37,063 nt of DNA, taken from sequence record OL964749.1; one strand, 5' to 3'. This DNA comes from Escherichia phage T7. Positions 8,050 to 17,475 of the stretch are shown here, piece by piece. The notes under the pieces were generated by a model. The model was not told the origin of the DNA. It saw only the letters and a list, made by a program, of their open reading frames with translations, and made no database searches. A program made the position numbers and the translations under genes. Each line of letters begins with the position of its first letter. The first letter of the stretch is position 1.

Positions 8050-8469
8050 GTGGAACTGCGGGAGAAAATCCTTGAGCGAATCAAGGTGACTTCCTCTGGG
8101 TGTTGGGAGTGGCAGGGCGCTACGAACAATAAAGGGTACGGGCAGGTGTGGTGCAGCAATACCGGAAAGGTTGTCTACTGTCATCGCGTAATGTCTAATG
8201 CTCCGAAAGGTTCTACCGTCCTGCACTCCTGTGATAATCCATTATGTTGTAACCCTGAACACCTATCCATAGGAACTCCAAAAGAGAACTCCACTGACAT
8301 GGTAAATAAGGGTCGCTCACACAAGGGGTATAAACTTTCAGACGAAGACGTAATGGCAATCATGGAGTCCAGCGAGTCCAATGTATCCTTAGCTCGCACC
8401 TATGGTGTCTCCCAACAGACTATTTGTGATATACGCAAATGGAGGCGACATGGCAGGTTACGGCGCTAA
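8050..8469 (+). CDS. Gene 2.8 protein (139 aa), HNH-type endonuclease-like
   Basis: ORF starting at GTG directly after the 2.5 stop; contains CHRVMSNAPKGSTVLHSCDNPLCCNPEHL, an HNH-like Cys/His motif. Confidence 0.7.
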   Translation: MELREKILERIKVTSSGCWEWQGATNNKGYGQVWCSNTGKVVYCHRVMSNAPKGSTVLHSCDNPLCCNPEHLSIGTPKENSTDMVNKGRSHKGYKLSDEDVMAIMESSESNVSLARTYGVSQQTICDIRKWRRHGRLRR

Positions 8470-8899
8470 AGGAATCCGAAAGGTTGGAGCGTTTCGCTCT
8501 GGCCTAGAGGACAAGGTTTCAAAGCAGTTGGAATCAAAAGGTATTAAATTCGAGTATGAAGAGTGGAAAGTGCCTTATGTAATTCCGGCGAGCAATCACA
8601 CTTACACTCCAGACTTCTTACTTCCAAACGGTATATTCGTTGAGACAAAGGGTCTGTGGGAAAGCGATGATAGAAAGAAGCACTTATTAATTAGGGAGCA
8701 GCACCCCGAGCTAGACATCCGTATTGTCTTCTCAAGCTCACGTACTAAGTTATACAAAGATTCTCCAACGTCTTATGGAGAGTTCTGCGAAAAGCATGGT
8801 ATTAAGTTCGCTGATAAACTGATACCTGCTGAGTGGATAAAGGAACCCAAGAAGGAGGTCCCCTTTGATAGATTAAAAAGGAAAGGAGGAAAGAAATAA
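8450..8899 (+). CDS. Endonuclease I (gene 3), Holliday-junction resolvase
   Basis: 149-aa ORF MAGYGAKGIRKVGAFRSGLEDKVSKQLESKGIKFEYEEWKVPYVIPASNHTYTPDFLLPNG...; the track start at 8402 is an upstream extension. Confidence 0.9.
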   Translation: MAGYGAKGIRKVGAFRSGLEDKVSKQLESKGIKFEYEEWKVPYVIPASNHTYTPDFLLPNGIFVETKGLWESDDRKKHLLIREQHPELDIRIVFSSSRTKLYKDSPTSYGEFCEKHGIKFADKLIPAEWIKEPKKEVPFDRLKRKGGKK

Positions 8900-9354
8900 T
8901 GGCTCGTGTACAGTTTAAACAACGTGAATCTACTGACGCAATCTTTGTTCACTGCTCGGCTACCAAGCCAAGTCAGAATGTTGGTGTCCGTGAGATTCGC
9001 CAGTGGCACAAAGAGCAGGGTTGGCTCGATGTGGGATACCACTTTATCATCAAGCGAGACGGTACTGTGGAGGCAGGACGAGATGAGATGGCTGTAGGCT
9101 CTCACGCTAAGGGTTACAACCACAACTCTATCGGCGTCTGCCTTGTTGGTGGTATCGACGATAAAGGTAAGTTCGACGCTAACTTTACGCCAGCCCAAAT
9201 GCAATCCCTTCGCTCACTGCTTGTCACACTGCTGGCTAAGTACGAAGGCGCTGTGCTTCGCGCCCATCATGAGGTGGCGCCGAAGGCTTGCCCTTCGTTC
9301 GACCTTAAGCGTTGGTGGGAGAAGAACGAACTGGTCACTTCTGACCGTGGATAA
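8899..9354 (+). CDS. T7 lysozyme (gene 3.5), N-acetylmuramoyl-L-alanine amidase and RNA polymerase inhibitor
   Basis: 151-aa ORF MARVQFKQRESTDAIFVHCSATKPSQNVGVREIRQWHKEQGWLDVGYHFIIKRDGTVEAG...; identical to T7 lysozyme as I recall it. Confidence 0.97.
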   Translation: MARVQFKQRESTDAIFVHCSATKPSQNVGVREIRQWHKEQGWLDVGYHFIIKRDGTVEAGRDEMAVGSHAKGYNHNSIGVCLVGGIDDKGKFDANFTPAQMQSLRSLLVTLLAKYEGAVLRAHHEVAPKACPSFDLKRWWEKNELVTSDRG

Positions 9355-9355
9355 T

Positions 9356-9378
9356 TAATTGAACTCACTAAAGGGAGA
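9356..9378 (+). promoter_or_regulatory. T7 promoter phi3.8
   Basis: TAATTGAACTCACTAAAGGGAGA; +1 near 9373. Confidence 0.85.
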
Positions 9379-9506
9379 TGTGGAGAGGCACTGTAACAGC
9401 TGAGGGTAAACAGCATAACTTTCGTAGTAGAGATCTATTGGAAGTCGTTGCGTGGATTTATAGAACTAGGAGGGAATTGCATGGACAATTCGCACGATTC
9501 CGATAG
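9378..9506 (+). pseudogene. Remnant of gene 3.8 (HNH homing-endonuclease-like): only the C-terminal 42 codons remain, beginning at promoter position +6 with no Shine-Dalgarno
   Basis: [45 protein letters not shown] overlaps the gene 4 start as the 3.8 C-terminus does in T7; about 277 bp are missing relative to reference. Confidence 0.7.
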
Positions 9507-16479: not shown

Positions 16480-16746
16480 ATGTGTTTCTCACCGAAAATT
16501 AAAACTCCGAAGATGGATACCAATCAGATTCGAGCCGTTGAGCCAGCGCCTCTGACCCAAGAAGTGTCAAGCGTGGAGTTCGGTGGGTCTTCTGATGAGA
16601 CGGATACCGAGGGCACCGAAGTGTCTGGACGCAAAGGCCTCAAGGTCGAACGTGATGATTCCGTAGCGAAGTCTAAAGCCAGCGGCAATGGCTCCGCTCG
16701 TATGAAATCTTCCATCCGTAAGTCCGCATTTGGAGGTAAGAAGTGA
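16480..16746 (+). CDS. Gene 6.7 protein (88 aa, virion protein)
   Basis: ORF MCFSPKIKTPKMDTNQIRAVEPAPLTQEVSSVEFGG...; the track start at 16459 is an upstream extension. Confidence 0.8.
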   Translation: MCFSPKIKTPKMDTNQIRAVEPAPLTQEVSSVEFGGSSDETDTEGTEVSGRKGLKVERDDSVAKSKASGNGSARMKSSIRKSAFGGKK

Positions 16747-17147
16747 TGTCTGAGTTCACATGTGTGGAGGCTAAGAGTCGCTTCCGTGCAATCCGGTGGA
16801 CTGTGGAACACCTTGGGTTGCCTAAAGGATTCGAAGGACACTTTGTGGGCTACAGCCTCTACGTAGACGAAGTGATGGACATGTCTGGTTGCCGTGAAGA
16901 GTACATTCTGGACTCTACCGGAAAACATGTAGCGTACTTCGCGTGGTGCGTAAGCTGTGACATTCACCACAAAGGAGACATTCTGGATGTAACGTCCGTT
17001 GTCATTAATCATGAGGCAGACTCTAAGGGCTTACAGCGATTCCTAGCGAAACGCTTTAAGTACCTTGCGGAACTCCACGATTGCGATTGGGTGTCTCGTT
17101 GTAAGCATGAAGGCGAGACAATGCGTGTATACTTTAAGGAGGTATAA
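16746..17147 (+). CDS. Gene 7 protein (133 aa)
   Basis: ORF MSEFTCVEAKSRFRAIRWTVEHLGLPKGFEGHFVGYSLYV...; start overlaps the 6.7 stop (GTGATG). Confidence 0.85.
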   Translation: MSEFTCVEAKSRFRAIRWTVEHLGLPKGFEGHFVGYSLYVDEVMDMSGCREEYILDSTGKHVAYFAWCVSCDIHHKGDILDVTSVVINHEADSKGLQRFLAKRFKYLAELHDCDWVSRCKHEGETMRVYFKEV

Positions 17148-17150
17148 GTT

Positions 17151-17438
17151 ATGGGTAAGAAAGTTAAGAAGGCCGTGAAGAAAGTCACCAAGTCCGTTAA
17201 GGAAGGGGCTCGTCCGGTTAAACAGGTTGCTGGCGGTCTAGCTGGTCTGGCTGGTGGTACTGGTGAAGCACAGATGGTGGAAGTACCACAAGCTGCCGCA
17301 CAGATTGTTGACGTACCTGAGAAAGAGGTTTCCACTGAGGACGAAGCACAGACAGAAAGCGGACGCAAGAAAGCTCGTGCTGGCGGTAAGAAATCCTTGA
17401 GTGTAGCCCGTAGCTCCGGTGGCGGTATCAACATTTAA
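17151..17438 (+). CDS. Gene 7.3 protein (tail-associated), 95 aa here (reference about 99 aa)
   Basis: Lys-rich ORF MGKKVKKAVKKVTKSVKEGARPVKQVAGGLAGLAGG... preceded by AAGGAGGT. Confidence 0.8.
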   Translation: MGKKVKKAVKKVTKSVKEGARPVKQVAGGLAGLAGGTGEAQMVEVPQAAAQIVDVPEKEVSTEDEAQTESGRKKARAGGKKSLSVARSSGGGINI

Positions 17439-17451
17439 TCAGGAGGTTATC

Positions 17452-17475
17452 CGTAAGACATGGAGACACATTTAA
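17452..17475 (+). other. Residual 3' end of gene 7.7 (last 7 codons plus stop), retaining the gene 8 ribosome-binding region
   Basis: Only CGTAAGACATGGAGACACATTTAA remains between the 7.3 intergenic AGGAGG and the gene 8 ATG, where reference T7 carries the roughly 130-codon gene 7.7. Confidence 0.65.

Follow-up and report, generated by a model that had tools for sequence, protein, structure and literature searches.

Nuclease-gene lesions in an Escherichia phage T7 genome are very probably products of CiPGr genome reduction

Results

Nuclease genes at the locus

To call lesions, the window (the whole stretch of 37,063 nt analysed here, with positions given on its plus strand, on which all features described below lie) was compared to wild-type T7 (NC_001604). 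The stand-alone nuclease genes of T7 number four and belong, by their family profiles, to two unrelated superfamilies, with 2.8, 3.8 and 7.7 of the HNH type and 5.3 of the PD-(D/E)XK type. An earlier note, made by reading the DNA without database searches, had described 3.8, 5.3 and 7.7 as inactivated by three different lesions, and the comparison with the reference confirms this. Gene 3.8 lacks T7 11177–11453 (277 bp; junction at window 9369|9370), so that 229–238 of its 366 nt are gone from the 5′ end and the entire HNH_3 domain (aa 14–56) with them. One copy of a 9-bp direct repeat, AAAGGGAGA, is left at 9370–9378 and marks the lesion as a microhomology-mediated deletion, and the phi3.8 promoter (9353..9378; sequence ...TAATTGAACTCACTAAAGGGAGA|TGTGG) is intact over the junction. 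The 3′ remnant of the gene (9379..9506, codons ~80–121) holds no HNH domain and overlaps the start of gene 4A at 9481; a Pfam search of its 42-aa ORF gave no match. Gene 5.3 (remnant at 14199..14455) has lost exactly 100 bp (T7 16642–16741; junction 14357|14358) with no microhomology. The frame is shifted after codon 53, leaving 53 native and 14 out-of-frame residues (67 aa, window 14199–14402); the internal frameshift reported earlier is real in its effect, but its cause is the 100-bp deletion and not a small frameshift mutation. Only the last 24 bp of gene 7.7 (17452..17475) remain after a 369-bp deletion (T7 19848–20216) that begins exactly at the GTG start codon and shows no microhomology at its boundary, and this remnant still holds both the ribosome-binding site of gene 8 and its start codon. 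Gene 2.8 is present as a full-length 139-codon ORF (8050..8469), the last 20 nt of which overlap essential gene 3 (start at window 8450).

All three broken genes had been taken as HNH-like, which holds for two of them. Wild-type gp3.8 and gp7.7 match Pfam HNH_3 above threshold (56.0 and 49.8 bits, respectively) and PHROGs HNH families (E 3e-61 and 3e-33). For wild-type gp5.3, searches of Pfam to E = 1 and of PHROGs to E = 1e-5 gave no HNH match; it instead matches PDDEXK_5 (PF11645; 42.1 bits against a cut-off of 26.1, residues 5–96), of which the remnant spans only profile positions 4–57 of 138, and in PHROGs it falls in phrog_5018, a family without assigned function. The best PDB chain match of gp5.3 is 2OST, which we take to be I-Ssp6803I, with “DLV...VQVK” aligned and with D37 and Q50-V-K52 placed against the catalytic D...(E/Q)XK of that chain. 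Judged by profile and alignment, gp5.3 is a predicted PD-(D/E)XK (I-Ssp6803I-like) endonuclease, not an HNH protein. It resembles enzymes of the I-Ssp6803I type in its family profile match, its sporadic distribution and its encoding by a small stand-alone gene, and differs in being free-standing rather than intron-encoded and in the weakness of the pairwise 2OST match (E 0.013). A search of the literature for 3.8, 5.3 and 7.7 as homing endonucleases found only one preprint, from 2025, in which 2.8, 3.8 and 7.7 are so named (bioRxiv 10.1101/2025.09.07.674715).

The HNH-like character that the earlier note had ascribed to gp2.8 is borne out by profile search and paralogy. The protein passes the Pfam HNH_3 cut-off narrowly (26.1 bits against 24.8), scores 26.2 bits against a cut-off of 27 for zf-His_Me_endon, matches PHROGs phrog_59 (“HNH endonuclease”, E 1.1e-30) and is 49% identical to gp7.7 (BLASTP E 3e-36), making the two paralogues. 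Residues C18, H45, H59, C66, H71 and N80 are invariant in 41 homologues, and C61, D62, N63 and N68 are conserved in at least 90% of these. The AlphaFold model (pLDDT 89.4) has I-HmuI (1u3e) as its top PDB fold match (probability 0.99, E 1.7e-3) and I-PpoI as the next, with TM-scores of only 0.3–0.4; when PDB chains were searched by sequence with gp2.8 and gp7.7, nothing meaningful was returned. On this sequence evidence gp2.8 is a true HNH protein and a paralogue of gp7.7, and the model adds the prediction of a likeness to I-HmuI and of a helical DNA-binding module at the C-terminus. A putative homing endonuclease, gp2.8 shares with the free-standing HNH enzymes of the I-HmuI type (HNH_3; T7 gp7.7 and gp3.8) an H...N...H...N core with Cys/His zinc ligands and a sporadic presence at a fixed intergenic slot (2.5/3), and would share the C-terminal module; it differs from them in a Pfam score barely above threshold, though the paralogy with gp7.7 is unambiguous. 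In T7, gene 2.8 occupies the slot between 2.5 and 3; Yersinia phage fPS-59 and a metagenome contig of 41 kb have it at that place as well (73–75% identity), and it is absent from phiA1122 and T3, the closest relatives of T7, where gene 2.5 abuts gene 3.

Eleven deletions shared with CiPGr clones

Relative to wild-type T7, the window carries 11 deletions, of which five are exactly 100 bp long (microhomology 0–3 bp), two begin precisely at a start codon (1.4 and 7.7) and four show microhomology of 7–13 bp. Beyond the nuclease genes, they affect 0.3–0.7, 1.4, 1.6/1.7, 4.3, 4.7, 7.3, the region downstream of 19.5 and the A2 promoter region. The 100-bp events, besides that in 5.3, have their junctions at 6455..6456 (T7 8163–8262; 1.6 stop and 1.7 start codons lost), 11255..11256 (T7 13340–13439; phi4.3 start region and 5′-end of gene 4.3 lost), 11987..11988 (T7 14172–14271, inside gene 4.7) and 36799..36800 (T7 39565–39664, downstream of 19.5). 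In the early region, a 1480-bp deletion (junction 1172..1185; T7 1244–2723 lost; 13-bp microhomology AGGAAGTCGAGGA) removes 0.4–0.6 and the kinase half of 0.7 and results in an in-frame Ocr-gp0.7C fusion. Gene 1.4 is excised exactly from ATG to TAA (junction 6056..6057; T7 7608–7763, 156 bp) at coordinates identical to those in the published CiPGr non-essential list (PMC12153263 Table S2); this deletion is the same engineering, outside the nuclease genes.

CiPGr (Yuan, Shi, Jiang & Ma, Nucleic Acids Res 2022; PMC9825161; GenBank OL964748, OL964750 and the MZ3752xx series) applies iterative Cas9 cutting together with repair templates that have 50-bp arms and are supplied as a pooled plasmid library, in which “cassette-100” templates remove 100 bp and “cassette-gene” templates remove a whole gene; undesigned large deletions and escape mutations are also described. 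The window is 99.9% identical to the CiPGr clones T7_1t1 (OL964748) and T7_1t3 (OL964750). Nine of its 11 deletion junctions are common to both, and the other two occur in one sibling each, that of 5.3 in T7_1t3 (where 7.7 is intact) and that of 7.7, identically, in T7_1t1 (where 5.3 is intact). Among the deletions found in CiPGr clones as well as in the window are the 277-bp deletion in 3.8, the 100-bp deletions in 4.3 and 4.7, the 1.4 and 1480-bp early-region deletions and the 12-bp deletion in 7.3. The window differs from T7_1t1 and T7_1t3 in combining the 5.3 and 7.7 deletions, in a gp2.8 substitution (G131W rather than G131V) and in a few private substitutions; no record in the collection searched has this exact set of changes. 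Other designed deletions of the same genes are seen in cassette-gene clones (3.8, 11254–11545; 5.3, 16483–16820).

This kinship is directly observed, as are the lesions with their sizes and boundaries and the family assignments, and the window is very probably a genome-reduced phage T7 engineered in the laboratory by CiPGr, the three nuclease-gene lesions being outcomes of that one procedure. From the series of accessions and clone names, in which OL964747 and OL964751 belong to other phages of that study, we infer further that it is most probably clone T7_1t2 (OL964749). Its genome reduction of 7.2%, compared to the 7.1% given for T7_100_t2 in the CiPGr paper (PMC9825161), counts against the assignment to a CiPGr clone.

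The clone name points to the cassette-100 library, but genes 1.4 and 7.7 were deleted in the whole-gene manner, so that either population mixing, which the CiPGr paper describes, or recombination between lineages is needed.

The published CiPGr non-essential list comprises 0.4–0.7, 1.4, 1.7, 3.8, 4.3–4.7, 5.3, 7.7 and 19.5 and does not include gene 2.8 (PMC12153263 Table S2). All eight of these regions carry a lesion in the window, the three nuclease genes being three of the eight, and no coding gene is disrupted beyond this set; outside it, the window has only the Ocr (0.3)-gp0.7C fusion, which is in frame, a 1.6 that is longer by two codons, the 12-bp change in 7.3, also in frame, and a deletion of 104 bp of non-coding DNA. 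Nuclease genes are not significantly enriched among disrupted dispensable genes (3/4 compared to 12/~33, hypergeometric P = 0.125). The nuclease lesions, making up three of 11 deletions, do not form a selective pattern.

Parallel point mutations in gene 2.8

Gene 2.8 had been called untouched, and its reading frame is indeed full-length, but it carries a G>T substitution at window 8440 (T7 10247; GGG>TGG, gp2.8 G131W), 10 nt ahead of the start codon of gene 3. In siblings T7_1t1 and T7_1t3 the adjacent base is changed (GGG>GTG, G131V), and either mutation destroys the AGG PAM at T7 10246–10248 (protospacer 10226–10245). Hits at adjacent bases that abolish one common PAM are a signature of Cas9 escape, and we read G131W, from this sequence pattern of two independent changes, as a probable escape mutation. 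Four cassette-gene clones have another change in gene 2.8, the double substitution L72R, which we count among the escape signatures. T7 is known to escape Cas9 through point mutations in the PAM or protospacer or through MMEJ deletions (PMC11294054). Essential gene 7.3 holds a comparable pair, in that one lineage has lost 12 bp in frame by MMEJ and another has a mutated PAM at the overlapping protospacer; that the 12-bp deletion is a parental polymorphism was considered and rejected, as it is missing from the cassette-gene clones. Point mutations overall were not significantly enriched in GG/CC (PAM-like) contexts (13/25 against a background of 0.40, P = 0.16). A global claim of PAM-context point mutations was dropped on this result, and it is for this reason that the escape reading is built on the parallel hits.

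Discussion

The lesion pattern of the window is very probably the record of a published experiment, not a natural loss of selfish genes. The 5.3 lesion would be a designed 100-bp deletion and the 7.7 lesion a designed whole-gene deletion sparing the ribosome-binding site of gene 8. The 3.8 deletion would be a spontaneous Cas9-escape event between the two 9-bp direct repeats that happens to regenerate the phi3.8 promoter ahead of gene 4; MMEJ between 8–15-bp repeats is a known route of Cas9 escape for T7 in non-essential genes (PMC11294054). The genes 3.8, 5.3 and 7.7 were probably lost because they are dispensable in the laboratory, like the other deleted regions of the same genome. Deliberate removal of selfish elements, one of the two explanations offered by the earlier note, is therefore right as to engineering but not as to aim, since other regions were deleted too.

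Gene 2.8 would also have been attacked by Cas9 and would have escaped by a PAM point mutation (G131W) rather than by deletion. From the mutation pattern we infer that the library targeted 2.8, and also the place at which its templates would remove sequence. The presumed target site lies 10–30 nt upstream of the start of essential gene 3, in the Shine-Dalgarno region near the 2.8/3 overlap, where deletions would be expected to cripple gene 3; this proximity would be the reason for escape by point mutation. The most likely reason for the retention of 2.8 is a cis constraint, in that it overlaps essential gene 3, and the one nuclease gene that resisted removal is the one that overlaps an essential gene. 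A stronger form of this idea, which we consider rather unlikely, is that the 2.8 locus resists deletion when under attack by Cas9 and that its coding DNA or translation aids fitness, for instance through translational coupling across 2.5, 2.8 and gene 3. If true, this would be a free-standing homing-endonuclease gene that protects itself from removal by housing the signals from which an essential neighbour is expressed.

It is improbable, in our estimation, that gp2.8 instead has a retained and selected function, such as anti-defence or inter-phage competition, which made it the sole nuclease gene to survive genome reduction. The gene is deleted in none of the eight CiPGr clones examined and bears point mutations in seven, a point-mutation-only pattern otherwise seen in essential genes; its omission from the non-essential list (PMC12153263 Table S2) agrees with such a role, as does a report that T7 homing endonucleases weaken GAPS4 immunity in a way that does not depend on their catalysis (bioRxiv 10.1101/2025.09.07.674715). 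Against this, L72R, a double substitution at a residue that is invariant in the 41 homologues and adjoins catalytic H71, is found in four cassette-gene clones and persists from transfer 120 to 270, which indicates that gp2.8 function was apparently not preserved. The absence of the gene from phiA1122 and T3, with 2.5 abutting 3, speaks against it likewise, and the CiPGr paper gives no indication of GAPS4 in host MG1655. Moreover, T7 delta-3HE (delta-2.8 delta-7.7 delta-3.8; Mahata et al., bioRxiv 2025) is viable, forms plaques like those of wild type and, with GAPS4 inactive, is an equal competitor (bioRxiv 10.1101/2025.09.07.674715). That phage resembles the window as a viable T7 without several homing-endonuclease genes, and differs in that it lacks 2.8 and keeps 5.3, whereas the window keeps 2.8, has 5.3 disrupted and carries many additional deletions. 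Together with G131W in the window itself, these observations leave little of the proposal that gp2.8 stands out as functionally retained.

Selection, natural or experimental, directed specifically against the selfish homing-endonuclease genes of this phage was the other explanation offered earlier, and we judge it very improbable. It accords with the inactivation of three of four nuclease-like genes, but the deletions bear signatures of design (exactly 100 bp, or beginning at a start codon), eight further deletions touch unrelated genes or non-coding DNA, the regions hit are those of the published CiPGr list, the nuclease-gene count lacks statistical enrichment, and siblings retain 5.3 or 7.7. 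In addition, T7_100_t2, the optimal T7 mutant of the CiPGr study and probably the clone in the window, loses to wild type in competition, with 18.75% after four transfers (PMC9825161). Errors of sequencing or assembly in an otherwise wild-type T7 as the source of the lesions, for which nothing specific speaks beyond odd repeat-number changes near the left end of the window, have a negligible probability given identical junctions in independently deposited sibling genomes and a base-exact match to the design of the method.

Laboratory genome reduction by CiPGr as the origin of these lesions carries a caution for the reading of phage genomes, in that deletion patterns in deposited “mutant clone” genomes mirror how the experiment was designed and should not be taken for natural selection acting on selfish elements. 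The scars of Cas9 escape in such genomes (PAM hits and in-frame microhomology deletions) can be used to infer which loci tolerate loss.

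The window as a product of iterative genome reduction

Comparison of a 9.4-kb region and of the window's first 25 kb matched phage T7 and gave as best hits, at 99.9% identity, "Mutant Escherichia phage T7 clone T7_1t1" (OL964748, 37,088 bp) and "T7_1t3" (OL964750, 37,455 bp), both records of the CiPGr study of Yuan et al. (Nucleic Acids Res 2022; PMC9825161). The adjoining accessions OL964747 ("selz_8t2") and OL964751 ("seszw_2t1") are mutants of other phages from that study. CiPGr passages phage on cells that contain SpCas9 and a plasmid library in pooled form. Every plasmid pairs a spacer with a repair template, which has 50-bp arms and deletes either exactly 100 bp ("cassette-100") or a whole gene ("cassette-gene") (PMC9825161). 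At 37,063 bp, the window is 7.2% below wild-type length, and we infer that it is clone T7_1t2, probably the "T7_100_t2" for which a genome reduction of 7.1% is reported (PMC9825161). Full alignment to wild-type T7 (NC_001604, source of all T7 coordinates below) revealed eleven deletions and 40 substitutions, along with a repeat expansion of 43 bp close to the left end and small repeat-unit changes in or beside the terminal repeats.

The window is an engineered, already published genome that holds no new biology, and because of this provenance the interpretation offered in the earlier note, that genes 3.8, 5.3 and 7.7 were lost through removal of, or selection against, selfish elements, is explained away. 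For T7, the "non-essential gene list" of CiPGr, as reproduced in a later paper, comprises 0.4–0.7, 1.4, 1.7, 3.8, 4.3–4.7, 5.3, 7.7 and 19.5 (PMC12153263, Table S2), and all eight listed regions carry a lesion here. The nuclease genes account for just three of these eight, and selfish genes are not what the pattern is about. Eight further deletions accompany the three, and no enrichment of nuclease genes was shown (three of four nuclease-like genes disrupted against 12 of ~33 classically dispensable T7 genes; p = 0.125). Lesions also assort independently between clones: 5.3 is kept in T7_1t1 and 7.7 in T7_1t3. Of the cassette-gene clones, the four from T7_120L to T7_270L have a different designed 5.3 deletion (16483–16820) and keep 7.7, a designed 3.8 deletion (11254–11545) is found in three of these four (120L, 220L, 270L), and T7_70L keeps all four nuclease-like genes.

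Anatomy of the deletions

All three lesions are present as the earlier note had described, and the anatomy of their junctions explains why they differ in form. Gene 5.3 lacks exactly 100 bp (T7 16642–16741), with a frameshift past codon 53 and a 67-aa product. Gene 7.7 is nearly excised (T7 19848–20216, 369 bp) from the first base of its GTG start codon, and the remaining 24 bp hold the gene 8 ribosome-binding site and start. Neither junction has microhomology and both have design-like sizes and boundaries; the former deletion is a cassette-100 product and the latter a cassette-gene product. The gene 3.8 deletion (T7 11177–11453, 277 bp) took out the first ~230 nt, the entire HNH_3 domain included. 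It runs between two occurrences of the 9-bp repeat AAAGGGAGA, of which a single one remains. It is a microhomology-mediated (MMEJ) deletion, the type by which T7 evades Cas9 when the targeted gene is non-essential (PMC11294054). Because the left copy of the repeat forms the +1 region of phi3.8, this promoter (TAATTGAACTCACTAAAGGGAGA) is regenerated (window 9353–9378) and now lies directly before the gene 4 region. The RNase III site R3.8, as we place it on the T7 map, was presumably lost as well, in which case gene 4 transcripts from phi3.8 would carry a new, shorter leader.

The other eight deletions comprise an exact ATG-to-TAA removal of gene 1.4 (T7 7608–7763, 156 bp); 100-bp deletions across the stop codon of 1.6 and the start codon of 1.7 (T7 8163–8262), in gene 4.3 (T7 13340–13439), in gene 4.7 (T7 14172–14271) and 3′ of gene 19.5 (T7 39565–39664, junction window 36799/36800); and three with microhomology. 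The "designed" deletion at 19.5 falls outside every NC_001604-annotated CDS, 27 nt downstream of the gene, which is left intact. Those with microhomology are a 104-bp deletion removing the A2 promoter region (T7 544–647, 9-bp microhomology), a 12-bp in-frame deletion in gene 7.3 (T7 19579–19590, junction window 17194/17195, 7-bp microhomology), and a 1480-bp deletion (T7 1244–2723, 13-bp microhomology) that joins Ocr and a C-terminal portion of gp0.7. In this last case (window 854–1549), the repeat AGGAAGTCGAGGA codes EEVEE in both genes, and the resulting in-frame fusion unites residues ~1–110 of Ocr (gp0.3), with G70D, and the last ~120 residues of gp0.7, without the kinase domain; the sibling records label it just "protein kinase".

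Further sequence changes

The 43-bp expansion is due to TCATTGTCTTTATTAATACAAC, a 22-bp unit that makes up the upstream half of the phiOL promoter region and occurs in 3.1 copies at window 365–432. At the two ends (within window 1–235 and 36913–37063), both terminal-repeat copies differ from NC_001604 by the same 1-bp and 8-bp deletions, and one unit has moved in the 13-bp repeat array just inside the left terminal repeat (window 163–235). G>T or C>A transversions make up 19 of the 40 substitutions, those in coding sequence are mostly non-synonymous, and substitutions were not significantly enriched in GG/CC contexts (p = 0.16). Two, private to the window, affect initially transcribed regions of T7 promoters: phi10 +2 G>T (GGG>GTG; window 20140, T7 22905), ahead of the capsid gene, and phi13 +6 A>C (window 24514, T7 27279). 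Tail-fibre gp17 N158D (window 32330, T7 35095), present in all three 1t clones, is identical to a change reported to have arisen when the smallest CiPGr T7 mutant was passaged (PMC9825161). In T7_270L (MZ375285), G9734T turns gene 2.5 codon 193 (GAA) into a stop; the essential ssDNA-binding protein would end 40 C-terminal residues short (the record's CDS is 579 nt).

Nuclease families

The earlier observation was mostly correct as to the lesions but mislabelled gp5.3 as HNH. Profile searches assigned gp3.8 (Pfam HNH_3, 56.0 bits; PHROGs HNH family, E 3e-61) and gp7.7 (49.8 bits; E 3e-33) to HNH families. For gp5.3, the Pfam search gave PDDEXK_5 (42.1 bits, cut-off 26.1) and no HNH match; its PHROGs family is phrog_5018, of unknown function. 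Among PDB chains it comes closest to 2OST (E 0.013), and the alignment covers the D...QVK motif; 2OST is I-Ssp6803I, a PD-(D/E)XK homing endonuclease. The HNH-like character proposed for gp2.8 held up, with HNH_3 barely above cut-off (26.1 against 24.8 bits) and phrog_59 "HNH endonuclease" (E 1e-30); at 49% identity over 128 residues (E 3e-36), its sequence is clearly paralogous to gp7.7. Across 41 gp2.8 homologues, C18, H45, H59, C66, H71, L72 and N80 are invariant and C61, D62, N63 and N68 nearly so, and the AlphaFold model (pLDDT 89.4) matched I-HmuI best (probability 0.99, E 1.7e-3) and then I-PpoI, with low TM-scores. The T7 HNH genes are 2.8, 3.8 and 7.7, as grouped likewise by Mahata et al. 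(bioRxiv 10.1101/2025.09.07.674715).

Retention of gene 2.8

Gene 2.8 keeps its full-length 139-codon frame (window 8050–8469) but is not, as had been thought, untouched: it carries G131W (G>T, T7 10247, window 8440). Both siblings carry G131V through G>T at the neighbouring base, 10248, and each change abolishes the GG in the AGG PAM (10246–10248) of protospacer 10226–10245. Two independent adjacent-base changes are very unlikely by chance among ~40 substitutions in 37 kb, and they look like Cas9 escape. Four of five cassette-gene clones have another change, T10071G with A10072T (L72R), within the seed of several candidate protospacers; overall, 2.8 is missense in seven of eight clones and deleted in none. 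Essential gene 7.3 offers a parallel, also resembling Cas9 escape: its 12-bp deletion is common to the window, T7_1t1 and T7_1t3, and T7_220L carries C19572T within the PAM of the protospacer (19575–19594) that this deletion interrupts.

That 2.8 was kept to preserve the function of its protein is argued against by the persistence of L72R from transfer 120 to transfer 270, although L72 is invariant among the 41 homologues and adjoins catalytic H71. Moreover, T7 without 2.8, 7.7 and 3.8 is viable and affected only when the GAPS4 defence system is present (bioRxiv 10.1101/2025.09.07.674715), and the closest relatives, phiA1122 and T3, lack 2.8, gene 2.5 directly abutting gene 3. phiA1122 has 3.8 (100% identical) and 7.7 (98.5%) and lacks 5.3; T3 has no orthologue of any of the four. 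In the intergenic 5.3 slot, which follows the DNA polymerase gene, T3 has an unrelated HNH gene (15168–15473), T7 has a PD-(D/E)XK gene (16483–16839) and phiA1122 has none, one site invaded by different nuclease families. Orthologues of gp2.8 (73–75% identity) occupy the identical slot, with the same 20-nt gene 3 overlap, in Yersinia phage fPS-59 and a metagenome contig; such a sporadic, site-specific distribution is the pattern expected of a free-standing homing-endonuclease gene.

Gene 3 is known from T7 genetics to be essential. The final 20 nt of 2.8 overlap it, and the mutated PAM lies 10 nt upstream of its ATG, inside the Shine-Dalgarno region. Around the 2.8 cut, a 100-bp or microhomology deletion would probably take the gene 3 translation signals with it, so that only point-mutation escapers would survive. 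Cis constraint from gene 3 is thus the most economical explanation of 2.8 retention and the likely reason why the 2.8 locus resists deletion under Cas9 pressure.
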